From contig CAWFOU010000001.1 in NCBI GenBank assembly GCA_963817525.1, positions 544,001-608,000 on the forward strand: a stretch of DNA of 64,000 nt, read 5' to 3'. The translations under genes were made by a program, and so were the position numbers. Below the pieces are notes generated by a model that made no database searches, was not told the DNA's origin, and saw only the letters and a list, made by a program, of their open reading frames with translations. Positions 6,620 to 64,000 of the stretch are shown here, piece by piece; positions within the stretch are counted from its first letter, which is position 1; the number at the start of each line of letters is the position of its first letter. The stretch is from an uncultured archaeon (GTDB lineage: Archaea > Thermoproteota > Nitrososphaeria > Nitrososphaerales > Gagatemarchaeaceae).

Positions 6620-7141
6620 CTACTGGCTGCTGCCGGCGGTTATCGTGAAGGAAAACAGCCCGCCCGTAGCAGTGACGATTTTCACCGTGTTGGTCGACCC
6701 CCCGACGATTCCTGTTGGAGCGCCGGTGTAGCCGGTGCCTCCTGTCCCGGTACTAGCGAGCCCGAGTCCTGCACAGTCACTATCGACCGTAAGAGTGCTG
6801 CAACCCGATTGAGCGCCTTCTAGCGTCAGCGCTTGCCCGTTGACGTATATCGAGTCTATCGTCGCAGAGGAGCCTCCAGTATTCTTGAATGAGATGACGA
6901 TGCATGTACCGTCCGCGGTAACGCCGGTCAGTGAGCCGCAAGTCGTACCACTCGACGTGCTGAATGCATACGAAGTTAGCTCAATCTGCTGCGCCGTCTG
7001 CTGCCCTCCGCCCTGGGTAAGGTTCCCTACCGTCCCGCTGACGAAGACGTACACGATGACACCCGCTGCGACTGTGATAGCAATGAGGAGGAGCGTCGCG
7101 ATGATGGGCGACACGCCACTAGGCGGCCTGCGGTAATCCAT
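6620..7141 (-). CDS. Archaeal type IV pilin (class III signal peptide)
   Basis: RRPPSG|VSPIIATLLLIAITVAAG. TTATAT 24-30 nt upstream of ATG 7141. Confidence 0.9.
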   Translation of the reverse strand: MDYRRPPSGVSPIIATLLLIAITVAAGVIVYVFVSGTVGNLTQGGGQQTAQQIELTSYAFSTSSGTTCGSLTGVTADGTCIVISFKNTGGSSATIDSIYVNGQALTLEGAQSGCSTLTVDSDCAGLGLASTGTGGTGYTGAPTGIVGGSTNTVKIVTATGGLFSFTITAGSSQ

Positions 7142-7395
7142 ACCCTCAGACTTCCCCCTTGCGCATATAACTCGGCTGAAGAAGTTGTTCAATTCGAGGG
7201 TGTCGATGACTCGCCGCTCGCGAGTACATCACTTCGAGATCCGGACTCTGGGCCAGGGAGACCTTGACGAGGAATGACGTGGTCCATGGTGCTGGAGTCC
7301 TAGACGACCCGCGTTCCCATATGGCCGGGAGGGTATCCTGAACTCTGACGGTTCGATTGGGACGAGAAAACAAGGAAGGAGAAGGCATCGGACCT

Positions 7396-8061
7396 TTACC
7401 CAGTCCTGCCAGCTACGACTGTGAATACTGACACTCCGCCGTTCGCCGTCACGACTTTGATCGTGTGGCTCGTTCCGGAGGTCGCGGCTGAGTTGAGCCC
7501 GAAGAGCAGCTGGACTGAGGACAGAGGTGCCAACGTCAGTGTCGGGGTCTGCCCGCTAGCAGTGTTGAGGCAAGTGACGGTGGCGCATGTGGTCGCGGCC
7601 GCCTCAGTGCCGCAAGCCGTAGCGATGCCTGACGCTGGTTGGGAAGTGCCCAAGATGTACGCGGTGATCGTGGTGGACGGCGGCAGGAGAGCGAAGCAGG
7701 CGCCTCCCGAGGTGGGCACCACGAAGTATTGTTCGTACGCTGGTGTGCCGGTCGCGTACCACTGTGTGAGTGCAGTCCCGTCGAAGTAGATCGAGCTTAT
7801 TGTTATCGATGAGCTGCCGGTGTTCTCGAGGAACGCCTCGCCCACGACTCCGTTGGACGACACCGACGTGCTGGCTACCCCCGTGAAGCTGTAAGCCTGA
7901 AGTTGGAGTTGCTGAGAGACTTGGCTTCCTCCCCCGCTCGTGAGGCCGCCGGCCAGGCTGTTGACGTAGACGTAAACGATGATGCCCGCGGCCACTGCTA
8001 TTGCGATGAGCAGGAGCGTTGCGATGATCGGTGAGATGGCTCGTCTGTGGGTGAACTTCAT
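7396..8061 (-). CDS. Archaeal type IV pilin (long variant)
   Basis: MKFTHRRA|ISPIIATLLLIAIAVAAG; C-terminal GTSHTIKVV...AGRTG. Starts 2 nt after the upstream pilin stop. Confidence 0.9.
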   Translation of the reverse strand: MKFTHRRAISPIIATLLLIAIAVAAGIIVYVYVNSLAGGLTSGGGSQVSQQLQLQAYSFTGVASTSVSSNGVVGEAFLENTGSSSITISSIYFDGTALTQWYATGTPAYEQYFVVPTSGGACFALLPPSTTITAYILGTSQPASGIATACGTEAAATTCATVTCLNTASGQTPTLTLAPLSSVQLLFGLNSAATSGTSHTIKVVTANGGVSVFTVVAGRTG

Positions 8062-27668: not shown

Positions 27669-30600
27669 TCACTTTGATTCGGACACCTTTCCGCCCGGCT
27701 TCTTTGCCCGCTTTCTCATGCGGTAGACGAAGAACCCAGTCGAACCGGCGGCCGCAGCGACGGCTATGATGACGAGGACCATTATCAGGCTCAGGGCGAC
27801 CTTTCCCACCGCGACGGACAGGCCCGAGGCTGAGTCACCTCTGATCTGGACGCTCGTCCCCAGGCTCGTGACCTTGGCCGTGTACGTCCCGACCGGGATC
27901 AGCCCCGCGGAGAATGTCCCCTGCTTGCTTGTCGTCCCGGTAAGCGTCGTCCCGTTGGCGAGGGCCATCGAGACCTGCGCCCCCGAGACAGGCAGCCCGA
28001 AGGGATCGACCACGCTCAGCGAAGCGGGATACACCTGGGTGTCCAGCGTGACGTTCAAGGGCGCCCCCTTCACGTGATACGACGGAGGCGGGCTCGGCCC
28101 CACGCTCGCGCCCTCCCATGAGACGTTGACCAGAGTGAAGGTGGTCCCGTTCTCCAGCCAGACGGAAGGCCCCTCGAGGTTGACGGTGGAGTTCCCGATG
28201 CCGAGGACGACCGCGCTGGGCTGGATCGGGACGCTGCCCAAGCCGTCGAAGAACTGGAACTCGACCTGGTATCCGGTCTCGGCGTAGAAGTCCAGCGTTT
28301 GAGGCTGGGTGAACGTGATTGTCGGGGTCGTGAAAGCCGCTGCGGTGGCGGACTGTGGCACGTTGACTAGCGTGACCCCGTCGAGGGCGTAAGACGTCAG
28401 CGTCTCGCGCGTCCCGGCCCCGGAGGTCCCGTTCCAGGTTCTCGGGACCGTGACAGTCACCTTCGTGCCCGCGTCGAAGTAGGAGTCGCCCGTCTGGGAG
28501 GGCGGACTCGTGGTAGGGCGCGTTGGCCCCACGACCGTGAGGAGGTACTGAGTCACCGAGGTCAGCACGATGTCCTGGGCCCCGGTCATCGAGAAGGCGA
28601 CGGTGAACGTCGCGTTGTCGGAGCGCGTCAGGTCGGTCTTCCCGCCGCCGTTCAGGGCGTAGCTGACCACGTCCTCCCTCGAACCCGAGGAGGTCTGGTT
28701 CCAGACCGAGTCGAAGACGGCGCTCACCTTTGTGCCAGCGTCGAACCATCCGGGCGCGTCTCCTGGGAGGGTGGAGTTGGTAGCCGAGACCCAAGCAAGG
28801 GGTGAGGATTTGAGGTGATACTGGACGACTGTCTGCGTCGTGATCGACTCTGGTGTCGAGATGGCCGGCACGGAGAGCACCTGCACCGGCGAGGAGGACA
28901 GCACGGAGGTGGACTTGCCCAAGTTCAACGAAAACGATACCAGCCTCGCCCCCGTCGTCGCCGTCCTTCCCCATATGCCGTCGAGCGTAACGGAGACAGA
29001 GGTCCCGCTGTCGTACCAGTAGCCGTCCTTGGGAATCGGGGTTGGGGTGATGGAAGAGAGCGAGGCGCTCGCTCCTGGATCGAGCGTCACCTCGTACTGC
29101 GTCACGACGGCGGTTGTGACCGCCTCGGGTGATGTGATCGCCATGAGGTTCAACACCTCTACCTGGCCCGTCGACGCGACCAGCACCTCGGCCCCGCCGT
29201 TGAGCGAGTAGCCAGCGAGCCTCTCTCCCGTGCCCGCCGACCTGTCCCACGATCCTTTCAAGATCAGCCCCACCGGACTGGAGGCATCATACCAGCCCGT
29301 GTCGAGCGGGATGGACGGGTTGGTGACGGAGACTAGCGCCGAGGAGGCTCCCTTGTCGTAGGTGACCTGATACTGGGTCACGCTCGTAGCGTTCACGAAC
29401 TGCGGGGCGTTCATCGCCTTGGTAACGATGGTGATAGGTCCGGTCTGGGCGACCTTGTCCACCGGGCCGGAGTCAAGCTCCCACGAGGCGGTCCTCAGGC
29501 CGGTCCCATCCGCGCGCGAGTATGCGCCGCTGAGGACCACTGTCACCGCCGGAGAGCCGGAGTCATACCAGAACGTGTCGTTCGGGAAGGTCGAGGGCGG
29601 CGAGATGGAAGAGAATGCCCCTAGCGCCGCGCCGTTGAGGACCACCTCGTACTGAGTCACGCTGGTGGTCGTGATCGAGATGGGTGTGTCCAGCGAAGAC
29701 GAGTTGTAAGCCTGGATCGCCCCTATCGTGTCGACCGGGATGGTGCGCTGGGCGGTTGCCGAGATGGAAGTGATCCGGTGGCCAACCCCGTCTGCCCTCC
29801 CCCACGTGCCGTTAAGCACGAGCTGGATCGGAGTCCCGCTGTCGTACCAATAGTCGTCTCCCTGGATCGTCGGAGCCGTTATTGAGCGGACGGCGCCCGC
29901 CGCACCCTGGTCCAACGAGATCTGGAACTGGGTCACCGAACTGAACTGGACGGTGTGCGGGCCTTCCATGGATATCGGGATGGTGAGATTCGCTTCCGGC
30001 TTGGCTATTCTGACCACGCTACCCGAGTCGATCTGATAGGAAACGATCCTGTATCCCGTCCCTGCAGACCTGTCGTAGACTCCCGGGGTGCTGACCGTGG
30101 CGTTGTTGCCCGCGTCCACCCACTGATTCGGAAGCGCCCCGTCCACGATCGTCAGCAGGTACTGCTGGTCGTAGACTACGAGGACGTAGTTGTTGGGGTC
30201 GGGCCCCACGATGGTTCCCGTGGCCAACGGGGCGAACCATCTTTCGCTCGACGTCGAAGCTGAGAGCGTGCTCTCCGTGGTATAGGTCGAGTTGTCGTCC
30301 GCCCAGAAGGTCTGGGGCGTCAGCGAGAGGGTGATGTGTTGGGCGTTCCCCGCCGCGAAGTACGTGAGATCCGGCTGCCCCGAGGGTGACGGGGGCTGCG
30401 CCCCCATGACCGAGAACCAGAAGGACTCGAAGTACTGGTGGAAGTAGGTCGCGCTCACCGTCGTGGGGGCGTTGAGCGTGACGGCCGTGGAGTTGTAGAG
30501 CACCCACCGCTCTGTGCTCGGCGAAGCCGTGCAGCAGAGGGCCGAGGGCAGCGAGTACTGCGTGCCGCTGTCGACCCAGACCGCCCCGTCCTTGCTGAGG

Positions 30601-31618
30601 GAGGTCTTGTTCCCAAAGTACTGATATGTGAACGAGGGCTGCGTGAGGCTGCTCGCGTTCCCGCCGACGAAATTAAAGTCGACACCGACGAAGTACTGGT
30701 GGTAGAAGACGGGAGTGATCGAGAGCGGACCTGTGACCGTGCCGTTGTTGTCCTTGGACAGGAGGGTCCCCGAAGGGGTCTGCACCAGGACGGTCCCGAT
30801 CCACGTCTCGTTCGCCCTGGGGGCGCTCGACGCCAGGGGCGAAGTGAACGTGTATTTCGCCCCAGAGTCCAGCCAGGTCGTCTGCGTGAACGAGGTCATG
30901 GCCAGCTCGTCTGGGGCCCCCAGCGAGGTGCTCGTGAGCGCGGGGGGCTGCGGGCCCCCCCGCCGACTATCGAGAAGCTCGAGGACACCAAGAACTGGTG
31001 GTAGTACGTCTCGTTGACTGTCTCGGCTTGGCTGATGGTCCCGCTGCCGGCGGTCTCCAAGATCCACCTCTCGCTCGAGGTCGAACCCTGGAGCTGAGAC
31101 GGGTAGGAGAAGGCCGAAGAGGCGTCGACCCACACCGTCCCCGGCGAGGGTGAAGAGGTCTGCGTGCCCATCTGGAGGAAGCTCACGCTAGGGCCGGAAT
31201 AACCCGTCCCGCCGTCCGTGACGTTGTAGTCGAAGTTGACGCGATATTGGTTGTAGTACGAGAAGGCGACGGTCAATGACGACGATATGTTCCCGGAGAC
31301 GTCCTGGCTCGTTACCCACCTCTCGCTCACGGTAGAGCCCGTGAGGATGGCCTGTGCGCTCCATGTGCTCCCGGCGTCCGCCATGTAGACCGTCGGCGAG
31401 GTGGTGAGGGGCACGACCTCCTGGTCCCCACCGCTCATGTAGGTCAGCTCGTCCTTTACGCCCGTCCCGCCACCTCCGATGATGGAGTAGCTGGCGGTAA
31501 GGGCTACCTGGGAGGGCTGGGCGTGGGCGAGTCCCGACGAGCCGGCGGCGCCCGTCATGAGCAGGCCCCACAAGGCAAAGACCCCGAGACCCATTGTCAA
31601 GACCGCGAGAAGTCTCAA
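27669..31618 (-). pseudogene. Large Ig-repeat surface protein split by a single-base frameshift at G7 (30955-30961)
   Basis: The 5' ORF (30896-31618) has the signal peptide and ERW..YYxQY repeats; the 3' ORF continues the same repeats to a TM anchor. One extra G gives IVGGGGPQPPALTS. Confidence 0.8.
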
Positions 31619-32660: not shown

Positions 32661-33194
32661 TCAGTTCTGCTTCTTCGTCTGAAGTCCGCTAGCGTCGAAG
32701 GTGAGGTGGCCCGAGTACAGGTTCTTGACCAGGTTCATCATCTTCTCGTCGTGTGCCCTTGAGAGCACCAGGAAGATCGAGGTGACGTCCCCGTGGCTGA
32801 GGATCTCGTTCATCTGCCTGAGGAACTTGTAGCTGTCCTGCAATCCGCGCTCGAGTATGAGCGAGGATATGTTGTCGAAGACGACGGCCTTCGGCTGGTC
32901 CGGGTCCGTGGTGACCGCCTCGTCCATGACGTTGAGGAGCACCGAATAGTCGGATCGAGGGACCATGACCTCGTTCGAGCCCGCGCTCGGCTTTGGATAT
33001 GAGCTCTCGGACAGGATGAAGAATCGGATGCCCGGCACGTCCTTCAGAAGGAGATGGACGGGGCTCCCCTTCGAGGTGAACGCGAACAGGCGCCGCCCGC
33101 TCGCGGCCATCGCCAGTGCGAACTCCTTGACGGCGCGCTCGTAGTTTACAGACGGGTCGGCTTCGAGCAGCATCGTCCCCTTGTAGTTGGGCAC
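32661..33194 (-). CDS. Stand-alone DUF835-like (inactive RecA/KaiC-fold) protein
   Basis: AVVFDNISSLILERGLQDSYKFL...AHDEKMMNLVKNLY; no Walker A. Confidence 0.65.
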   Translation of the reverse strand: MPNYKGTMLLEADPSVNYERAVKEFALAMAASGRRLFAFTSKGSPVHLLLKDVPGIRFFILSESSYPKPSAGSNEVMVPRSDYSVLLNVMDEAVTTDPDQPKAVVFDNISSLILERGLQDSYKFLRQMNEILSHGDVTSIFLVLSRAHDEKMMNLVKNLYSGHLTFDASGLQTKKQN

Positions 33195-33467
33195 CGGATA
33201 TCTCCCTGTCGGCCCTCATTATTAACCGAGGCTGTCGAGAATCGACTTCCATCTCCCGATTCGGAGGCCGGGCGGACCCCTGTGCCGGGCAGCCGCCGCG
33301 TCCCGAGCCCCAAGCGCGGGTTGGCGTCCAATCCGCCTGGTGCCGGCAAACACGACAACAGAGAGTTTGAAGTTCTTGCAGCTCCCAGGGGAGGTAGAGC
33401 CCTCCGATTGTTTCTGATTTAGTAACGTGGTCCTGCATAGTGCGGTAATATCCTTCGTATCGCCAAC

Positions 33468-33716
33468 ATGGCGATGAACAGCCTACTCCTGTACCGACTC
33501 GTCAAGGTCGTCCCCTTCGCAACGGCGGCCTTCTCCATTATCCTGATGTCGCACGGCGTCTTCGGAGTTCACGGGGTGCACGTTTCCGGAGACCCGGGAG
33601 GACCCGGAGCCCCGAACACCCACATGGGAATCAACGGGGATCCAGGTGGACCCGGCGCGCCCAACCTTCGCATGACGACAAGTGGGGATCCTGGCGGACC
33701 CGGAGCCCCTAACTAG
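33468..33716 (+). CDS. Multi-core peptide precursor: hydrophobic leader + 3x GDPGGPGAPN
   Basis: Cores at 33588-33617, 33636-33665 and 33684-33713 are identical in protein but differ at third codon positions; stop directly after core 3. Confidence 0.85.
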   Translation: MAMNSLLLYRLVKVVPFATAAFSIILMSHGVFGVHGVHVSGDPGGPGAPNTHMGINGDPGGPGAPNLRMTTSGDPGGPGAPN

Positions 33717-33720
33717 GGCT

Positions 33721-34812
33721 CTATCTCTTTATTTTCATCTTCTGGGGCAGGACGGCCTCCAGGGCCGCCTGTCTTTCGAAGAACCAGCCTCTCTTGCTGT
33801 CGAAGTTCTCGTAGGGTATCGTGTACCAGAACGTGGTCGAAAGGTCGACCGTCCACGTCTTCCAGTCGTCGACGATGTCCTTCAGGCGCGAGTCGAGGAA
33901 GCGGACCGACTCCATGAAGTAGTCCGCCGGAAGAGCCGAGTGGACCTGGTAGTACCCGTCGCTCCGGCCTCCCTCGAACCAGGTGAAGGGGAAATTGTTG
34001 AAGAGAAGCCTGAGCTTTGCGAGGGCTGCCCTTGAGACTCCGCTGAACTCGTAGATGAGACCTGCCGCCTTTGTGAACTCTTTGGGGGTCACAGACGTCC
34101 AGTTGACGTAGTTCGAGCGCACCACGTCGGAGACATGCTTCCTATAGTGCCATCGGACCGTCCTCTCGTTCAGCCTGAGCTTGCGGGCGATCTCCGCGAT
34201 GTTGCGCCACGAGTCCAGCTCGAGCTCCTTTATTATGAGCAGGTCGGTGACGTCAAAGTCCGTCGCCGTCGAGGGCTCCTCCGTCTTGACCGCGCTCGGC
34301 GGAGGCTCGCTGAGCTTCTCGACCTTCGCCCACTCGACCGTCCATTCTCCCGAGCCAAAGTCGTAGTACCTGCTGTTGAGCTCGGGGTTGCGCGACCAGA
34401 CGAGCCGCTGCGTGGTGTATTCGACCAGGATCTTCTTTTTCACGAGGTCGTCTAGGAATTCGAGGAATTGGTCGACGAGCGAGACTGGGACCGCGAAGAA
34501 GGCGAGCTGCCGGCGCTCGACCGCGGCCTTGCACCAGTAGGTGAGGAAGGCGTTGGAGGAAAGGCCCGTTCGGATGGCCGACTCCGAGGCCTCCGCCTCG
34601 CGTGTGAGCTTCATCGACACGAAGTAGCGTTCGAGCCCGAGTGCCGCGTGGTTGAGCGGGGTCCGTACGTTGAGGCCCATGTTCGGGAACCTCTTCTTCA
34701 TGGTGTAGCGTATGGTCTCGGTGGGCATCCCAGTCATGCGGGAGAGGAGGGAGACGTTCTGGATCCCCACGCGGTTTATCGCCTCTATGAGCTTGGTTAG
34801 GTCGGACGGCAT
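33721..34812 (-). CDS. Tandem (double) Lrp/AsnC-type transcriptional regulator
   Basis: N-terminal HTH (NVSLLSRMTGMPTETIRY...LGL) and second HTH (DVTDLLIIKELELDSWRNIAEIARKL..ERTVRWH); TTATATA at about 34838-34844. Confidence 0.8.
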   Translation of the reverse strand: MPSDLTKLIEAINRVGIQNVSLLSRMTGMPTETIRYTMKKRFPNMGLNVRTPLNHAALGLERYFVSMKLTREAEASESAIRTGLSSNAFLTYWCKAAVERRQLAFFAVPVSLVDQFLEFLDDLVKKKILVEYTTQRLVWSRNPELNSRYYDFGSGEWTVEWAKVEKLSEPPPSAVKTEEPSTATDFDVTDLLIIKELELDSWRNIAEIARKLRLNERTVRWHYRKHVSDVVRSNYVNWTSVTPKEFTKAAGLIYEFSGVSRAALAKLRLLFNNFPFTWFEGGRSDGYYQVHSALPADYFMESVRFLDSRLKDIVDDWKTWTVDLSTTFWYTIPYENFDSKRGWFFERQAALEAVLPQKMKIKR

Positions 34813-35269
34813 CTAGATCACTTGTGGTCTAATTACCTATATAATATCTGCGGGTTCGTGAAAAGGTGGCGGCCTAGTCCCCGTAGAAGGCAGATTTTTC
34901 ATTCTTCTAGTCGCATACGTGTTATTCTATTGAAATATGAATATTGTCTACATTCGACATGAGAATTGTGGCCATTTCTTGATGCTTGAGCCAACTCCCT
35001 CAGTTTGTCGGAAGAGTGGCTGCCCATGGCTCAGTAGTAGGGCCAATGGCCGGCCTTAGTATCCGGAGTCTAGATTCAGGTTCCACATGAAAGAGCCGCG
35101 AATTACTTTATGCATTTGCTGGCACGACTTAAATTCCTAAAGCAATAATGGACGGATGTAGGGCGGATTCGGTGTCAGAGAAAGTGATCTCGGTTTCAAG
35201 GGAGAACGTGAACCTCAGGCTCGTTATCTCCTTCGAGGACGAAAAAACCCCGGCCAAGAGCTTATCGCG

Positions 35270-35319
35270 ATAAGGGCGGATTCTTCCACTTCATAAGGGC
35301 GGATTCTTCCACTTCATAA
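35270..35319. repeat. 23-bp tandem duplication ATAAGGGCGGATTCTTCCACTTC x2 (+ATAA)
   Basis: Exact copies at 35270-35292 and 35293-35315. Confidence 0.9.
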
Positions 35320-35442
35320 CCCATTTCAGCCCGTCGGAAATGCCGACCGCAGACTCCAGCCGCGAACGTGGCGACACGGAGCTGTTGCTCGGAAGAACGA
35401 GGGCTGGCCTGGTCAAGAGACGGAAATCACGGAGGACACCTG

Positions 35443-35895
35443 TCACGGATTGTCATGCGAATCCAATGCCGCGGATGCTATCAACTTGATAAGCTCGGAA
35501 GGGCTTCTTTCTTGGATAGGTTCTTTGTCGAACTCCGCAGTCGCACCGAACTCTCGCTTGATTTCCCTCGTCAGCATGTACTCGAAGACCTTGACCCCAG
35601 CCTCCCCGTAGATGGACTTTAGTCCCTCGATGAACTCATCGGGTTTGTTCGCGATGTCATCCCGTTCAAGATTGCGGGTCACATACAGGTTCCAGAAAAT
35701 GATCTCCTGCGTCTGAGAGCCAGCGCCAATGGCATGAAAGGCTCGGCTGACGCAATCCTTGATCCTGGCCGCGAAGGCAGCCTGTCGCTGTGAGTAGTTG
35801 AAGGCGGCCACCTGGTTGGCATGATAGAGCCCAGCGTTTTTAGGCCTTTGCTCGTCAATCGAGACAGTTGCCGTTTCTTTGATTCGGAGGTACAT
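35443..35895 (-). CDS. NitrOD5/DUF3227-like protein (start uncertain)
   Basis: IG...QEIIFWNL...IANKPDEFIEGLKSIYGEAGVKVFE..I pattern. Confidence 0.65.
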   Translation of the reverse strand: MYLRIKETATVSIDEQRPKNAGLYHANQVAAFNYSQRQAAFAARIKDCVSRAFHAIGAGSQTQEIIFWNLYVTRNLERDDIANKPDEFIEGLKSIYGEAGVKVFEYMLTREIKREFGATAEFDKEPIQERSPSELIKLIASAALDSHDNP

Positions 35896-36069
35896 CGCGT
35901 CATGAATATGCCAAATCGACTGATATCGACATTCTTGCCGTATTCCAGAAGTTCCGACGGAGGTAGAAGAGAACGGCAAGGTCAGCGTAGAGGCAAAAGA
36001 TTGCTCTTGGTCTGAAGATGGAGCAGCAGTTTAGAACAAACTACCATACCGGAATATATCGACGAAAAG

Positions 36070-36285
36070 TTGACGGTTTCTTTGCCCTTGGTGGCTCCCT
36101 CGGACCGGTTCATCCTGTCCAAGACCGACCGGACGGTGATCAGGAAATGCCCATTCTGCGACATTCGACTCGAGGATTTCGTCGGGAAGGATGTCAACTT
36201 CATAGTCCATCTCGGGAATCCAATTCCTTCACACAGAATGAAACGTGAGTGGGCTGATTATGTCACCCGGATGAATCAAGCCTGA
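36070..36285 (+). CDS. Small putative zinc-binding protein
   Basis: CPFC...FIVHL...SH; AT-rich box just upstream. Confidence 0.45.
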   Translation: MTVSLPLVAPSDRFILSKTDRTVIRKCPFCDIRLEDFVGKDVNFIVHLGNPIPSHRMKREWADYVTRMNQA

Positions 36286-36622
36286 ACGCGGAACCTAGAT
36301 TCAGAGTCATGCCAATGTCATGACGAGACGAGCCTTTTCTCCATGAGAATTGATAGGTCACAAGGGTTGACGGGCGCAATATCCGCTCCCGGGTGAGGGT
36401 TTTTCGACAGAGCCTGATTGTGAGCCTATCCCAAGAGAAAGGAGGCCCATCGCGTCGCTCTCCCCGATCTCAACCACCGCGTGGCGCACCGCGCTCGAAT
36501 AGCGCCTCTCTAGTCGAGCCATCCCATACTCACGAGGGGGTTCCCGGTAAAGGCGGAAGGCGTCGTCGATGACAAACGTTTATCTATCCACATTACCATA
36601 AACGTGGACAGCAAGACCAAAC

Positions 36623-36988
36623 TTGATGAATCCGGTATCGGGGATTGAGATAGACCGCTACGTCCGAAAGTATCGGAGAGGGATGGTGAACTCTCTTCTA
36701 GAGTACCTGATTTTGAACCACCTCGAAAAGGAGCCCCTCTGCGGCTACGACATCATAAGACTCCTTCACGAAAGGTTCCACATTCTCTTGAGCCCTGGGC
36801 AGGTCTACCCGGTCATCGACTACATGGCGGCTCAAGGCTTGATCTGCAAGGAGAAGCGCGGCAGGATGGTGATGCTCGCCCTCACCCACCTGGGATCTTC
36901 TCTCTTGCGGGCATGGAAAGAGGAATTCCAGAACATCAAAATTCAGGTGGACAACCTGGCCGCGGAGGAGCTCCACGCTGTATCTTGA
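36623..36988 (+). CDS. PadR-family transcriptional regulator
   Basis: LILNHL..EPLCGYDII...LSPGQVYP...GLI...LTHLG. Confidence 0.85.
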   Translation: MMNPVSGIEIDRYVRKYRRGMVNSLLEYLILNHLEKEPLCGYDIIRLLHERFHILLSPGQVYPVIDYMAAQGLICKEKRGRMVMLALTHLGSSLLRAWKEEFQNIKIQVDNLAAEELHAVS

Positions 36989-37102: not shown

Positions 37103-37441
37103 ATGTCGTCGAGTTGGGTAGTCCACAGGTTTCGACGGGCCTTTCTGCAAGAGAACCTGATGCTGATCACCCTCCGGCTTCTCAGGAGGTCGGAGATGAG
37201 CGAATGGGAGGCTTTGGATTCCATCTATTCTCGGTACAGGCTGACCCCCGACGCGAAGGAGTTCAAGAAGGTCCTGGACGTCTTGGTGAGCGGGGGGTAC
37301 GTGAGCTCCGAGCCGGCCGATGATGTCCGCGAGCTTCGGATAACGAGGACAGGTGTGAAGCTGCTCCACGCGCTCGAAGAGGAGTACCGGGCCATCGTCC
37401 TGAGCATCGAGACAGAAGCTCCCGGCCCAATAGCCCGCTAG
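37103..37441 (+). CDS. PadR-like winged-helix protein
   Basis: LITLRLL...LVSGGYV...LRITRTG; TATA-like box at about 37066-37078. Confidence 0.7.
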   Translation: MSSSWVVHRFRRAFLQENLMLITLRLLRRSEMSEWEALDSIYSRYRLTPDAKEFKKVLDVLVSGGYVSSEPADDVRELRITRTGVKLLHALEEEYRAIVLSIETEAPGPIAR

Positions 37442-38269: not shown

Positions 38270-38568
38270 CGCGAAGACTAGTACGTAGGCGTGTTAGATA
38301 TCCTTCTTAGGGCTCTTTCCAAATTGCGGTCCTGAAAACTTATGGAAAACGGCAGGAATTCACGCTTGGGCCGTTTCCAGCTTGGCGGGGGAGAGGGGTG
38401 AAACCGCTGAAAACACCGCGAAATCACGGTGAAGTCGGGACAAAGTCGTGCAATCGACCCTCGCGAACGTCGGTCGCTCGGCGAAAGGGAAGATATACGA
38501 TTCTGAGGAGAGGGCGTCGCCCGGTCGCCGTCACCAAAATAGACTGGGGCATCCAAGAGCTTATACAG

Positions 38569-41500
38569 ATGGATGGAATGTCCTTTGAACGCGGACCTAG
38601 CTTGAGAGACCCTGTCTGCCTCTTTCCCACGAGAAGGACTCACAAGGACCTCATAGTGGTTTTTTTGGCGCTTTTTGCACTTGCTTTGCTGCTTGCGGCC
38701 AAACCCGCGCTGGGAGCGACCCTTACGGTCGGGACTCCCACGGCGACGCTAAACCCGGTCACCGTGGGGACGCAGACGACCATCACCGCAGGCACAGTAA
38801 ACGGTGGGACTGGTCCCTATACCTATGCGTGGATGGGCTTGCCCACGGGATGCAGCGACTCCACCTCGGCTTCGATAACGTGCACGCCGACTAGCGTGGG
38901 CGCTGGATCGTTTTCGGTGACCGTCACCGCGACCGACATGGCGGGGGACGCGGGGATGTCGAGCGCCCTCACCCTGGTCGTGAGTCCAGCAACGCCGACT
39001 CTTTCAGTAGTCTGCCCGACCCCTGACGTTGGGTACACGGCGACCTGCACCGCCACGCTGAGCAACATCGCCTACCAGCCGGACGGAACGGTGACCTTCA
39101 CCCAGACCTCTTCTGGCGCGCTGATATCGTCCTCAACTTTCGACTGCATGGTGGCCCCGATTACCTACTCGTGCACGACTGCCCCGGTGCAAACGAAGGG
39201 AGCGGGAACCGTCACCTTCTCGGTAGCTTACACGATGGATCCAAACAACTCGCCCACGCAAAACCCGGTGACCGCAACGCTCCTGATCGCGAAGGCCGCG
39301 AGCATTTTGACGGCAAACTGCGCCAGCTCGACCGTGGTGATCGGGACGCAGACGACTTGCACCGCGACCCTGAGCGGCACCTTTTCGCCTACGGGCACAA
39401 TCGCGTGGACTTTCAGCGGGATGGGCGCCTTCACCCCGAACGATTGCACCGTTCCTCCCGCTTCGTGCAGCGTCTCCTTCTCGCCCGCGACATCGGGCAC
39501 CATCACCGCCACCTATGCGGGTGACCCCAACAACGATGAGAGCTTCAAGTCCTTCGACCTAGCTGCTGACATCGGGGACAGCATCACTATCACGGTGGCC
39601 AACGGTGGCCCGTCGACCGTGATCGATCTTTCAGGCTGCTCGGTCTCGCCCACCACCATCTCGGCAAACGGGGTGGCCTGGACCTTCCAGGCGGCCTCTG
39701 GGTGCTCCGCGTTGGCCCTCACACTGCCTCCCGCGGGTGCGGACGCGAGGTACCTGTCGGCCAACGGCACGGGTTCGCTCGCAATCCCCACGTGCACTTC
39801 CAGCCCCTGCCAACCGTTCTCCGCGACCATCTACTACCAGTTCCAGAACACGTATCGGGTCACTCCCGAGAGCCCCTCGACCTGGGCTGCCTCGGGGTCC
39901 GTCCCAGTAACGGGGACGGCGCTGGGGAACGCGAGCGCACGCATCTGCACCATAACCATCACCACGGGGACGGGCGCGTTCTCCTGTGAGGGATGGTCCG
40001 ACTATGGCACGCAGGTCGTAATGGGGTCTCTATCATTATCCTCGACCCAGCGTGAGGCTGCCTCGCCCCCCGCCTTCACTGACACGTCCGCGGGAGGCAC
40101 CGACTACGACTCTAGCTACTACCTACAGGTCCTCGAGGGCTTCCAATATTCGCTCGTAGGGGGGACCACAGCACCTTCGGCTCCGGGCATCAGCTATACG
40201 GCCTTGGGGTCACCTGCGACGTCTCCTCTGACGGGCTCGGCTGCGTCCCTCTCGATCTGGATGGACTCGGGGACAAGCTGGAACGTTCCGCAGACAATAT
40301 CTGGCTCCACGGCGACCGAGCGCTGGTACAGCCCGGTGACCTCCGGGGCAGCGACCGGCGGCGCGACCATCTCGCTGGCCTACTATCACCAGTACTTCGT
40401 GGCGTTCGGATATTCGGTGATTGGAGGCGGCACGGTGTACATCCCTCCGTCTGAGCAATTCCAGGAGTCTGGGAACCAGACGACAGGGAGTCAGGGGTGG
40501 GCGGACGCCGGTTCTTCATACAGCTTCACCAATCCCCTTTCCGGGTCTACCGCGGGGGAGCGCTGGTTCTCGCAGGAGGCCACCGGGGCAGTGACGAGTG
40601 CAGGGCGGATAAACGCGACATACTACCGCCAGTACACCCTCACCCTCAGTTTCACGGTCACCGGCGGAGGGTCATACGACTCCCCCGTCCTGAGCTCAAC
40701 ATCTTTCGCCGCACCCGCGTCAGCGCAACTCTCTGCCGCCCCCACGGTGCTGTGGGCGGACTCGGGTGCAAAATGGTCGGTGACGACGCTGCTCCCCAGC
40801 TCCACCGACACGGAAAGGTGGATCACCCAGCAGACCGACTCGGGGACAGCGACGTCGGCCATTGTGCTGCAGCTAAAGTACTATCACCAGTACGCCGGGT
40901 TGTTCTCCTATAGCATCAAGGGCTCGGGAGGCTCCCCGCCCGTCCCCAAGCTCAACTACACGGAGTTCGGCTCGTCGGTCTTGGTCCCGCTCTCCTCGAG
41001 CCCTACGGTCGTCTGGCCTGACTCCGGCTCGGCATGGACCGCGCAGCCCACTATCCCCGGGGAGCAGGGCGAGCGCTGGCTCTCCAACGCGACGGCGCTT
41101 ACGCCGGTTGACAGCGGGTTCTCCGCCGACATACAATACTCTCATCAGTTCTACGTCGAGGTCGGGTTGAACACCGCGGCCGGCGGGCAGGTCGCAAACG
41201 CCGACCAATGGGAGTACCAGGGCAACTCGGTGATCCTGAACGCGACGTCGGCGCACCAGTGGACCTTCGCATATTGGCAAGGGGGGACGACCTACTCCTA
41301 CAACGGCACGACGCGCTCCCCTAGCCTGACCGTGACCGGGCCTGCGAACGAGACCGCGGTCTTCTACCCGGGTCTAAACATATCCACCGACAGCGACGGC
41401 TCGGTGGCCTATTCCTACGGCACGGTCGGCGGGGTGGTCCCCGCGGGGAGCAACGCCACCATCTACCCGCCTCTCGACAAGAACGTCACCCTGACGGCCA

Positions 41501-41739
41501 TGCCCAAGACGGTGGAGATAATGTTCCAAGGTTGGACGGGGGTGCTCAAGGGCTCCCAACTCCAGTCGTCGGTGGCAATAACCACCCCTGGATCGGCGCT
41601 CGCCACGTTCGCTACGGACTATACCGACATCAGAACCTTCACTCTTGCGGCTCTGTTCGTCTTCCTGTTGGCGGCCTACATTCTTGTCATCAGGCGTGGC
41701 TTTGCGCCCAAAGTCCCCAAGATCCCCGGTATCGGCTAG
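38569..41739 (+). CDS. Large membrane-anchored surface protein: Cys-containing Ig-like repeats, ERW..YYHQY repeats, InlB-B-like repeats (start uncertain)
   Basis: Signal peptide (AKPALG); GGTGPYTYAW; ITATYAGDPN; repeats paralogous to 27669-31618; C-terminal TM plus RR. Confidence 0.85.
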   Translation: MDGMSFERGPSLRDPVCLFPTRRTHKDLIVVFLALFALALLLAAKPALGATLTVGTPTATLNPVTVGTQTTITAGTVNGGTGPYTYAWMGLPTGCSDSTSASITCTPTSVGAGSFSVTVTATDMAGDAGMSSALTLVVSPATPTLSVVCPTPDVGYTATCTATLSNIAYQPDGTVTFTQTSSGALISSSTFDCMVAPITYSCTTAPVQTKGAGTVTFSVAYTMDPNNSPTQNPVTATLLIAKAASILTANCASSTVVIGTQTTCTATLSGTFSPTGTIAWTFSGMGAFTPNDCTVPPASCSVSFSPATSGTITATYAGDPNNDESFKSFDLAADIGDSITITVANGGPSTVIDLSGCSVSPTTISANGVAWTFQAASGCSALALTLPPAGADARYLSANGTGSLAIPTCTSSPCQPFSATIYYQFQNTYRVTPESPSTWAASGSVPVTGTALGNASARICTITITTGTGAFSCEGWSDYGTQVVMGSLSLSSTQREAASPPAFTDTSAGGTDYDSSYYLQVLEGFQYSLVGGTTAPSAPGISYTALGSPATSPLTGSAASLSIWMDSGTSWNVPQTISGSTATERWYSPVTSGAATGGATISLAYYHQYFVAFGYSVIGGGTVYIPPSEQFQESGNQTTGSQGWADAGSSYSFTNPLSGSTAGERWFSQEATGAVTSAGRINATYYRQYTLTLSFTVTGGGSYDSPVLSSTSFAAPASAQLSAAPTVLWADSGAKWSVTTLLPSSTDTERWITQQTDSGTATSAIVLQLKYYHQYAGLFSYSIKGSGGSPPVPKLNYTEFGSSVLVPLSSSPTVVWPDSGSAWTAQPTIPGEQGERWLSNATALTPVDSGFSADIQYSHQFYVEVGLNTAAGGQVANADQWEYQGNSVILNATSAHQWTFAYWQGGTTYSYNGTTRSPSLTVTGPANETAVFYPGLNISTDSDGSVAYSYGTVGGVVPAGSNATIYPPLDKNVTLTAMPKTVEIMFQGWTGVLKGSQLQSSVAITTPGSALATFATDYTDIRTFTLAALFVFLLAAYILVIRRGFAPKVPKIPGIG

Positions 41740-62914: not shown

Positions 62915-62953
62915 CATAATCTATTTCTAATTTGACAGCCGTTCTTGAAAATA

Positions 62954-64000
62954 TTGGAGCCGCAGGAGAATATAGAGCAGCCTGACCCCAATGAGAACAC
63001 GCTCGCCCTGGTCAAGCTGATGACTGAGATAGGCCCTGACATCGCGGAGATATCGAGGCGGCTGGGGCAGTTCAAGGAGAGCGTCAGGTACCGGTACAAG
63101 GAGAAGATAGTCAAGCGCGGGTTCGCCGTGAAGGCGGAGCCGGACTACACCGCATTGGGCCTTCGGAGGATCGTCATGAAGCTGGCCGTCTCGGACGAGT
63201 ACTCCTCCCGCGCGTCGCAGGTCTTCGAAGCGATGAGCGATCTCTGCTATCTGGTCTCCTACGCGGGGACCATGCCCAACGGCAGCTACCTTGCCCAGGC
63301 CGCAGTCCCGGTGGAGTTTACAAAGGAGTTTCACGCGCTCGTAGGTGGCCTGGGTGACAGGGGCATATTCTCCTCGGTCGAGCTCTTCGATTGCGACTGG
63401 CACAGGGTCGCTCCCATGCGCGCTGAGTGCTTCGATTTCGACGAGGGCGTCTGGGACTTTGACTGGAGCAACCCCGTGCCCCTCAACGAAAAGGCGGCGC
63501 GAGGCGCGGTCTCGGAGAGGAAGAAGGTCGACAAGGTGGACCTCCTGATCCTGAAAGAGCTATCGAAGGACGGCGGCGCCTCCTTGATGGAGGTCAAGGC
63601 GGCGATCAAGAGGATAAACGGCGTCGACATCAACTACAAGACTTTGGGCTGGCACTATACGCACCACGTCCTGAGCCAGCGGCTGGTCAGCCACTACTCG
63701 GTGGGGTGGCACCGCCTCAACTACGACTTCGAGCGCAACAAAGATGTGGGAACCGCCAGGTACGACTACCTTGGGGTCGTGGTGATGGTCCGTGAGGTCA
63801 ACGGCCAAGAAAGGATGATGCTGAGGAGCCAGATGGACTCCCTTCCGTTCCTCTGGTCAGAGGCGGCAGGCTCCACGTACTTCTCGCAGCTCTTCATCCC
63901 GCTCAACGCGGTGAACGAAGCCCTGGAGCACTTGAAGGCGGTCCTAAAGCCATACGGAAAGAGGGCCGAGCTGCTCTTCCTAGACAAGCGGGAGATGAAG
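62954..64000 (+). CDS. Tandem Lrp/AsnC-type regulator, paralogue of 33721-34812 (3' truncated; absent from the ORF track)
   Basis: Reads ...IGPDIAEISRRLGQFKESVRYRY...DYTALGLRR...FDFDEGVWDFDW...DKVDLLILKEL...TLGWHYTHHV and appears open to the window end. Confidence 0.82.
   Translation, partial: MEPQENIEQPDPNENTLALVKLMTEIGPDIAEISRRLGQFKESVRYRYKEKIVKRGFAVKAEPDYTALGLRRIVMKLAVSDEYSSRASQVFEAMSDLCYLVSYAGTMPNGSYLAQAAVPVEFTKEFHALVGGLGDRGIFSSVELFDCDWHRVAPMRAECFDFDEGVWDFDWSNPVPLNEKAARGAVSERKKVDKVDLLILKELSKDGGASLMEVKAAIKRINGVDINYKTLGWHYTHHVLSQRLVSHYSVGWHRLNYDFERNKDVGTARYDYLGVVVMVREVNGQERMMLRSQMDSLPFLWSEAAGSTYFSQLFIPLNAVNEALEHLKAVLKPYGKRAELLFLDKREMK

Follow-up and report, generated by a model that had tools for sequence, protein, structure and literature searches.

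The closest described counterparts of the system reported here come from bacteria. In group III Rgg/SHP systems, as laid out in the relevant sections of PMC3679016, shp lies downstream of and convergent to rgg, several such pairs coexist and an oligopeptide permease is required; the mature form of SHP is the precursor's C-terminal portion, starting at a conserved Asp or Glu. In Rap-Phr systems, Phr propeptides can carry tandem identical or slightly diverged copies of the pheromone, which are matured by extracellular rather than linked proteases (passages on Phr duplication in PMC5199041 and PMC11343458). For Archaea, the pertinent part of a 2025 article (PMC12240190) recognizes just three true cases of quorum sensing, one based on a carboxy-acyl-homoserine lactone (carboxy-AHL) and two on unknown molecules, none of them a gene-encoded peptide. 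Here, we describe a candidate peptide-regulator pair in a 64,000-nt stretch of DNA (the window) from an uncultured archaeon of the family Gagatemarchaeaceae (contig CAWFOU010000001.1, positions 544,001 to 608,000 of the forward strand). In this pair, a small gene with three identical copies of the decapeptide GDPGGPGAPN (33474..33716, plus strand; window coordinates throughout) converges on the gene of a 363-aa putative cytoplasmic regulator (33721..34812, minus strand). The genome carrying the window is denoted G000, related genomes G0xx and loci in relatives L0xx.

As in the group III systems described in that source, a short peptide gene is found here downstream of a cytoplasmic helix-turn-helix (HTH) regulator gene, in convergent orientation, the encoded peptide has a basic N-terminus, a hydrophobic stretch and a C-terminal part with a conserved acidic residue, and several paralogous pairs are present per genome. 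Rgg/SHP also needs an oligopeptide importer, and an Opp-type binding protein is encoded in G000; the two Opp/Dpp-type binding-protein matches (SBP_bac_5) indicate that the importer class exists in this genome and nothing beyond that. Unlike Rgg, which combines an HTH with TPR-like repeats, the candidate receptor consists of tandem HTH and RAM modules, and unlike SHP, the peptides are Gly/Pro-rich and acidic rather than hydrophobic, are present in up to three copies per precursor and belong to an archaeon. With HTH and RAM twice and no TPR in its structural model, the predicted receptor does not place the module in the RRNPP group; at most, the module works like a member of it.

Duplicated Phr precursors, as covered in the two papers cited above, share with the archaeal peptide a signal-peptide-like N-terminus (predicted here), several identical or nearly identical copies and the existence of intermediates with one divergent copy, represented here by two metagenomic homologues. 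In contrast, Phr genes point in the same direction as rap, a TPR protein serves as the receptor, the cores are 5-6 residues long and the host is a bacterium. A preliminary description of the locus, made from the sequence of the window, had likened the precursor both to yeast alpha-factor and to peptide signaling of the Rap-Phr type; the closest analogues are group III Rgg/SHP and duplicated Phr propeptides rather than alpha-factor. In alpha-factor precursors, the cores are flanked by dibasic Kex2 sites, whereas no K-R or R-R precedes the cores in our peptides, the spacers follow the pattern x-[H/R]-[M/V]-x-x-[S/N/G] and no G-protein-coupled receptor is involved. What is shared with alpha-factor and other fungal multi-copy precursors is a signal sequence (predicted here) and tandem identical spaced cores (see also the section on such precursors in PMC5199041).

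The small gene was initially delimited as an 82-aa open reading frame (ORF) at 33468..33716 on the plus strand, and we recovered this frame together with its three cores, their 16-aa period and the 4-nt gap to the convergent ORF. The start codon was revised: although the frame from 33468 exists, the product is probably 80 aa long and begins 6 nt further on, at the second ATG (33474), which is the start position used in all orthologues. Orthologue alignment and comparison of the cores within the gene define its layout, all on the plus strand. A basic n-region (33474-33506) is followed by an uncharged h-region of 15 residues (33507-33551), a near-invariant His-Gly (33552-33557) and a His-rich pro-segment (33558-33587). 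Core 1 (33588-33617), core 2 (33636-33665) and core 3 (33684-33713), all reading GDPGGPGAPN, are separated by spacers at 33618-33635 and 33666-33683, so that each 16-aa period consists of a 10-aa core and the 6-aa segment preceding it. The stop codon (33714-33716) directly follows core 3 and lies 4 nt from the stop of the 363-aa ORF. The peptide has no match in Pfam or NCBIfam, and G000 contains no other in-frame occurrence of a GDPGGPGAPN-type core motif. The computed mass of the core is 837.362 in linear and 819.351 in cyclic form.

Judged from its sequence, the threefold repeat is far beyond chance. The three cores differ pairwise by 7, 5 and 5 nt, as previously noted, with every difference at codon position 3 and no residue changed. 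Tandem Repeats Finder reported as its sole signal a weak 9-nt period and missed the 16-aa repeat because the DNA copies have diverged. The synonymous-only pattern recurs in 6 further genomes: 15 intragenic core pairs from 7 genome-derived multi-core genes accumulate 85 nucleotide differences, every one of them synonymous and at codon position 3, against 0 non-synonymous ones, which extends the earlier proposal of selection on the exact core from one gene to seven. Between G000 and its nearest relative, 16 of the 30 core codons carry synonymous changes and none a non-synonymous change, while a different residue is encoded at 6 of the 12 codons of the spacers and at 8 of the 26 of the leader. 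Furthermore, in one genome with two copies of the module (L070 and L071), the leaders differ and the mature parts are identical. As measured by these codon comparisons, purifying selection is strongest on the ten-residue core, the last part of the 16-aa unit. Since synonymous sites between core copies are near saturation, recent gene conversion fails to explain the identity of the cores; selection for identical products can explain it.

Across 25 aligned family members, the core follows the consensus G-D-P-[G/I]-G-x-x-x-P-x, in which D is invariant and variation between species falls at positions 6-8 and 10. There are at least a dozen core variants, among them those with PGA, NGG, SGG, NTG, PGE, SGP, TGG and IGQ in the middle. 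Within a protein, the copies are identical in all but 3 of ~22 multi-core proteins; two of the exceptions are metagenomic homologues with a single S/P difference in one of three cores and the third is a distant match with a degenerate third unit. Such concerted change at positions 6-8 and 10, seen in the aligned sequences, is what would be expected of specificity channels or pherotypes. Other identities considered for the core did not fit. By inspection, several variants break the G-x-y register of a collagen-like sequence, the core does not conform to RTX-type calcium motifs and the core ends lack N-x-S/T sequons for N-glycosylation; the conserved, presumably extracellular tail and the linkage to the regulator do not suit a peptide resembling type I toxins.

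Searches for further members of this peptide family, hereafter family A, returned 7 homologues from a collection of 5.8 billion proteins and 16 matches at E ≤ 1e-3 among 1.84 billion cluster representatives. Fourteen of the latter are proteins of 44-77 aa with the same design; the two long ones, of 429 aa (P0139) and 1027 aa (P0140), were treated as Gly/Pro-rich repeat matches and left outside the family count. The number of cores per protein ranges from 1 to 3. One-core forms are 41-49 aa long and end a few residues past the core, the last residue being T, D, G, P, H, W or V, and in these proteins the segment H-x-G-x-L-[D/S/G] precedes the core. The spacers of the multi-core forms, first described as dissimilar, proved to be semi-conserved and homologous to this pre-core segment, and the duplicated unit is therefore the whole 16 aa, that is, recognition segment plus core. 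From these alignments, the one-core forms are ancestral-looking. In one locus (L066, in G012), the third peptide unit is decayed, being truncated after the spacer.

The preliminary description had proposed that linkage of such ORFs to the regulator be sought in related genomes, and this linkage was found. The organism belongs to Nitrososphaerota, and its relatives include metagenome-assembled genomes labeled Thaumarchaeota, Nitrososphaerales and Ca. Gagatemarchaeum stordalenia. A search of sequencing runs for the sequence gave 8 DNA runs from 2 studies and no RNA run. A family-A ORF is convergent to an orthologous regulator (43-77% identity) at 18 loci in 16 genomes, with stop-to-stop distances of -7 to +42 nt. 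These loci combine 13 genomes of the genus, 16 of 18 species-representative loci, which largely overlap with the former, and one locus from another genus, L020, whose peptide bridges family A and the sister family B described below. The pairing was seen wherever the flank was readable: of the two loci without a family-A ORF, L068 coincides with a contig end and L078 is a regulator remnant with stop codons. At two other places, L075/L014 (G020) and L077 (G015, contig 4), the regulator is split over two frames and the peptide ORF is intact.

Paralogous regulators only 25-30% identical to that of the window are accompanied by convergent small ORFs of a second type. Family-B products, of 38-45 aa, have the consensus M-T-x-D-x-K-x-R-Y-G, an 18-residue stretch rich in G/A/S, G-x-H-x-x-P-L-[D/E] and a variable Gly-rich tail; across 21 members the leader is conserved and the tail variable. 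They were first found at two loci of G000; of 39 paralogue flanks, 17 then proved to contain one, without exception in convergent orientation. When 41 whole genomes were scanned with a family-B profile, 66 matches in 26 genomes resulted, 60 of them convergent and 21-520 nt (median 77) from where a regulator match ends; with the 18 profile-building sequences removed, 42 of 48 remain linked. The six unlinked matches include one case at a contig edge and one partial match. A scan of all 70,434 stop-to-stop segments of G000 recovered four family-B genes, the next segment having an E-value of 3.9; two of the four neighbor intact regulators, a third is degenerate, as is the regulator next to it, and the fourth is located at a contig edge. 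The pairing persists down to ~25% regulator identity and extends to four or more further genera or families within the order (G023, G024, G028 and G040), and in G029 the paired small ORF is more distant. Sequence comparison identifies a two-gene module of non-ammonia-oxidizing soil Nitrososphaerota, of which several peptide-regulator pairs with different C-terminal tails coexist per genome, a further feature to be expected of specificity channels or pherotypes. In G002 (C1:70000-123300), five regulator-family genes lie within ~53 kb, at least 3 of them with an adjacent small ORF (two family B, one family A). On contig 12 of G000 (7097-7861), a regulator and its family-B ORF both look frameshifted.

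The 363-aa protein consists of two fused modules, each with a winged HTH, a RAM-like alpha/beta domain and a conserved aromatic hairpin. Pfam recognizes an HTH_AsnC-type domain at residues 187-220 with 22.9 bits, under the cut-off of 27, as well as a sub-threshold HTH_24, and NCBIfam has no match for the protein. A profile of 18 relatives matched the archaeal Lrp/AsnC proteins PH1519 (E 1.2e-4) and ST1022 (E 4e-4) in the PDB, both halves aligning. From the same 18-relative alignment, AlphaFold2 produced a model with a predicted local distance difference test score (pLDDT) of 88.9 and a predicted template-modeling score (pTM) of 0.88, in which a three-helix HTH followed by a beta-alpha-beta-beta-alpha-beta domain, the RAM topology, occurs twice in succession and there is no membrane segment. 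Over the full length, Foldseek ranks NirDL first, an enzyme with a fused double Lrp fold (4ch7; E 1.6e-9, template-modeling (TM) score 0.51/0.58, 10-12% identity), and the single halves match Lrp and AsnC of E. coli, LrpC, ST1022 and PH1519 with TM scores (target) of 0.56-0.66. The initial assignment as a tandem Lrp/AsnC regulator therefore holds as a description of the fold.

As in PH1519/FL11, ST1022 and E. coli Lrp and AsnC, a winged HTH precedes a RAM-type domain in each half; unlike in these proteins, two modules are joined in one chain, the similarity stays under the Pfam cut-off and each half ends in an aromatic hairpin, Y-x-F..G-x-W, which canonical Lrp proteins do not have. Because the protein has 363 aa, two modules and hairpin extensions, compared with a single-module chain of ~150 aa, the model describes it as a divergent fused relative of Lrp/AsnC by fold and not as a canonical member. 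The family is expanded, with 136 rows of matches spread over 31 of the 41 related genomes and 3-10 matches per genome in most of the genus. Nearly all of its 119 database relatives are unnamed or "hypothetical", and its language-model neighbors, which serve only as a lead, are archaeal hypothetical proteins of 350-415 aa with the same weak HTH matches.

Upstream of the peptide gene, orthologue alignment revealed a putative promoter/operator block of 33 nt (33419..33451, plus strand), which begins with TTAGTAAC, continues 7 nt on with a second conserved block and ends in a TATA-like box (33446-33451). The block is conserved in 17 of 17 orthologous loci and occurs once in the 2.8-Mb genome; in the window, it has 1 match at ≤2 mismatches with 0 expected. 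Given this conserved TATA-like box ~22 nt 5' of the ATG at 33474, together with the starts of the orthologues, a leaderless or near-leaderless mRNA is probable. For the regulator, alignment of 17 upstream regions predicts a promoter at 34836..34863 on the minus strand, comprising a TATA-like box (34836-34844) and the conserved element TTTCAC (34858-34863), and no obvious motif shared between the peptide and regulator promoters, as would suit a common operator, was apparent in the alignments. Family-B genes have a TATA-like box of their own 25-32 nt before the ATG, and in the 80 nt upstream of them (loci L041-L097 and those of G000) there are conserved blocks specific to each paralogue group, often with CATG, which may be group-specific operators. 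At the other end of the peptide gene, a T-rich tract on its strand (33724-33745), ~10-25 nt past the stop, encodes the last codons of the regulator, K-M-K-I-K-R; this tract could act as an archaeal terminator for the peptide gene. The stop of the regulator is not followed by a T-tract, and its transcript may therefore extend antisense into the peptide gene.

The N-terminus of the peptide, judged by its residues, fits a cleavable Sec signal and would also suit an anchor. In family A, the basic n-region has the motif M-N-S-L-x-L-x-R-L-V-K, and the uncharged segment that follows comprises 15 aa in multi-core and 16-21 aa in one-core forms (18 in family B). Small residues stand at -3/-1 relative to the Gly of the His-Gly in most members, and two divergent relatives, L069 and L076, have a classical A-x-A site of the signal peptidase type directly before the core. 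K and R residues are confined to the part N-terminal of the hydrophobic stretch and absent from the tail; the positive-inside rule accordingly puts the tail outside the cell. His residues cluster just past the hydrophobic segment. Archaeal class III, or type IV pilin-like, signal peptides have a short charged leader ending in [K/R]-[G/A/S] right before the hydrophobic segment. In family A, K/R is followed directly by the hydrophobic segment without G/A, the corresponding sequence in family B is R-Y-G, and the mature parts of ~30-70 aa would be very small for pilins.

What the conserved leader, the invariant acidic residue, the frozen tail specific to paralogue and species, the one to three identical copies and the convergent HTH gene suggest together is a pheromone and its receptor. 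We tentatively favor, at somewhat less than an even chance, the reading that the gene encodes a multi-copy propeptide that is exported and releases a decapeptide, or 16-mer, which would be read by the dedicated adjacent regulator. The peptide gene would be transcribed, probably as a leaderless mRNA, from the conserved, genome-unique promoter block; the N-terminus would serve as a signal peptide of the Sec type, by which the C-terminal part is exported. Extracellular proteases would then cut at the semi-conserved spacers, yielding one to three identical decapeptides per precursor. The peptide would build up outside the cell, be taken up by an Opp-type ABC importer and bind the neighboring regulator at its RAM or aromatic-hairpin surface, which in turn would alter the action of the regulator on the peptide promoter and on other targets. 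Secreted acid peptidases and oligopeptide ABC transporters are reported for Gagatemarchaeaceae in the corresponding section of the genome paper on this family (PMC10640624), the main text of which mentions neither Lrp nor quorum sensing.

Several points weigh against the pheromone reading. Expression, export, cleavage, uptake and binding are all inferred; release of the bare core requires two kinds of cut, and the 1.2-1.5 kb compared around the pair contain no conserved gene for an exporter, a protease or a modifying enzyme, in line with the preliminary observation that no processing or modifying enzyme is adjacent. RAM domains are known to bind amino acids, not decapeptides. The length of the uncharged segment is also compatible with a membrane anchor, and the n-region is conserved beyond the needs of a plain Sec signal. 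No small ORF accompanies 22 of the 39 paralogous regulator flanks or 2 of the 5 other regulator-family matches in G000, two metagenomic homologues carry one divergent core among three, and shared descent within one archaeal family inflates all of the linkage counts.

The dedicated, conserved and genome-unique promoter of the peptide gene would be at home in an arrangement of regulator and target only, in which the tandem Lrp-like protein senses an amino acid or metabolite, switches on the peptide gene and the peptide acts outside the cell without returning to the regulator. Lrp/AsnC proteins classically bind small ligands, and the evidence for selection on the core fits this arrangement as well as it fits a pheromone; the His cluster just past the hydrophobic segment would suit a metal- or proton-binding His-rich peptide, the other roles conceivable here being a cue for another receptor, a surface or matrix factor and an antagonist of competitors. 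However, a pure target gene leaves unexplained why every paralogous regulator has retained a separate peptide gene with a tail specific to it and why the variable core positions change in a concerted, pherotype-like manner, and the acidic, Gly/Pro-rich core without Cys is unlike known peptide antibiotics or metallophores. We regard this arrangement as rather unlikely. An uncleaved mini membrane protein, with its N-terminus inside and its tail outside, is a rather poor prospect in our judgment. Such a protein would modulate the regulator through its cytoplasmic N-terminus, or act on a membrane process, with the tail as a disordered extracellular sensor or spacer, and uncharged segments of 15-18 residues or longer, n-region motifs strongly conserved in both families, the small-residue (G/A/S) helix faces of family B and the near-invariant His-Gly at the membrane boundary are all compatible with it. 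Yet the part that varies with specificity is the tail, which would lie on the side of the membrane opposite to a regulator that itself has no membrane segment; 15 uncharged residues are short for a stable span, the A-x-A sites directly before the core in two relatives suggest cleavage, and one to three copies of an identical unit are typical of released products.

Copy number and a conserved leader also recall ribosomally synthesized and post-translationally modified peptides (RiPPs), and the preliminary description had raised the possibility of a RiPP-like system and of G...N cyclization. In this reading, the cores would be modified by enzymes or cyclized head to tail (G...N) once the leader is recognized. 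Many cores do start with Gly and end with Asn. However, the last core ends at the stop codon and so has no leaving group for transpeptidation, and the one-core relatives end in a variety of residues other than Asn, which makes such cyclization doubtful. Furthermore, comparison within 1.2-1.5 kb of the pair revealed no conserved RRE-type protein, modifying enzyme, exporter or protease. The conserved companions there are limited to a PadR gene, an ORF of 112 aa and a KaiC-like gene, the last in two lineages only. The core also has no pattern of Cys, Ser or Thr; with these findings, the RiPP idea is unsupported and we consider it very improbable. Least probable of all, to the point of being nearly negligible, is that the 363-aa protein is an enzyme of the siroheme decarboxylase type (AhbA/B, NirDL) to whose function the small ORF is unrelated. 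NirDL is its best full-length structural match, and no solved structure other than NirDL/AhbAB shares this fused double HTH and RAM architecture. However, the identity to this enzyme is just 10-12%, neither Pfam nor NCBIfam matches the protein to the siroheme decarboxylase family, and both copy number, at 3-10 family matches per genome in most of the genus, and gene context differ; the tight linkage to a small ORF is maintained across paralogues, and the HTH halves match DNA-binding Lrp/AsnC proteins.

The conserved peptide-regulator module appears undescribed. The preliminary description knew of no archaeal system of this design, and full-text literature searches on archaeal peptide signaling and RRNPP-like systems found none. 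The design itself is known from Firmicutes; the parts, namely a fused RAM-domain regulator and Gly/Pro-rich cores, and the archaeal host would be new, conditional on function. A broader proposition, which we hold to be possible and put forward with reserve, is that these modules represent the first ribosomal peptide pheromone systems of Archaea. In such systems, expanded fused tandem Lrp/AsnC receptors would read Gly/Pro-rich peptides through RAM-type domains, each genome would hold orthogonal channels, pherotypes would be set at core positions 6-8, dosage would be raised by one- to three-fold core duplication, and the whole would have evolved independently of the Firmicutes RRNPP systems and in convergence with them. 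Should the regulator have the peptide as its ligand, pairs of peptide pheromone and receptor would have arisen at least twice from unrelated receptor folds, and the ligand range of RAM domains would extend from amino acids to peptides. Archaeal cell-cell signaling is barely understood, and the module offers a concrete candidate in the form of a 10-residue peptide, a promoter block of 33 bp and a soluble protein of 363 aa for which a high-confidence model was obtained; if the proposition is true, it would give a view on the social behavior of abundant, uncultured Thaumarchaeota of acid soils. Even as a mere regulated secreted product, the repeated decapeptide would be marked as a functional extracellular molecule by the extreme purifying selection on it.

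The surroundings of the pair are conserved in part. A divergent gene for a PadR-family regulator (36623..36988, plus strand; Pfam PadR, 34.8 bits) and, downstream of it, a 112-aa ORF without a Pfam family (37103..37441, plus strand), which is conserved in orthologous loci, lie upstream of the regulator in 17 of the 18 loci L061-L078, as determined by tblastn. The start of PadR lies ~100-500 nt away from the regulator in other genomes, whereas in G000 ~1.8 kb is inserted between the two (34813-36622), with the peptide/regulator junction intact; the insert contains a 178-aa ORF with a weak NitrOD5 match (35443-35979, minus strand). On the other side, the peptide gene has upstream of it an ORF of 177 aa (32661-33194, minus strand) that weakly matches DUF7504, DUF835 and DUF7090 (KaiC/RecA-like) and is kept in position in only two related lineages (L064/L005 and L067/L008). 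Further out, two giant ORFs of 1154 aa (27669-31133, minus strand) and 1113 aa (38398-41739, plus strand) contain repeats, a C-terminal hydrophobic anchor and weak matches to CarboxypepD_reg, Big_3_5 and PKD. They are probably the adhesin genes that, along with pilus genes, had been suggested to be under the control of the peptide; no evidence was found that ties the giant ORFs to the module, and the idea of control over pilus or adhesin genes is unsupported. At its far end, the window cuts through the gene of a paralogous tandem-Lrp regulator (62945..64000, plus strand; family match), and just past it, ~50 nt beyond the stop of this paralogue, lies a convergent 38-aa small ORF (G000:C1:608123-608239, minus strand).

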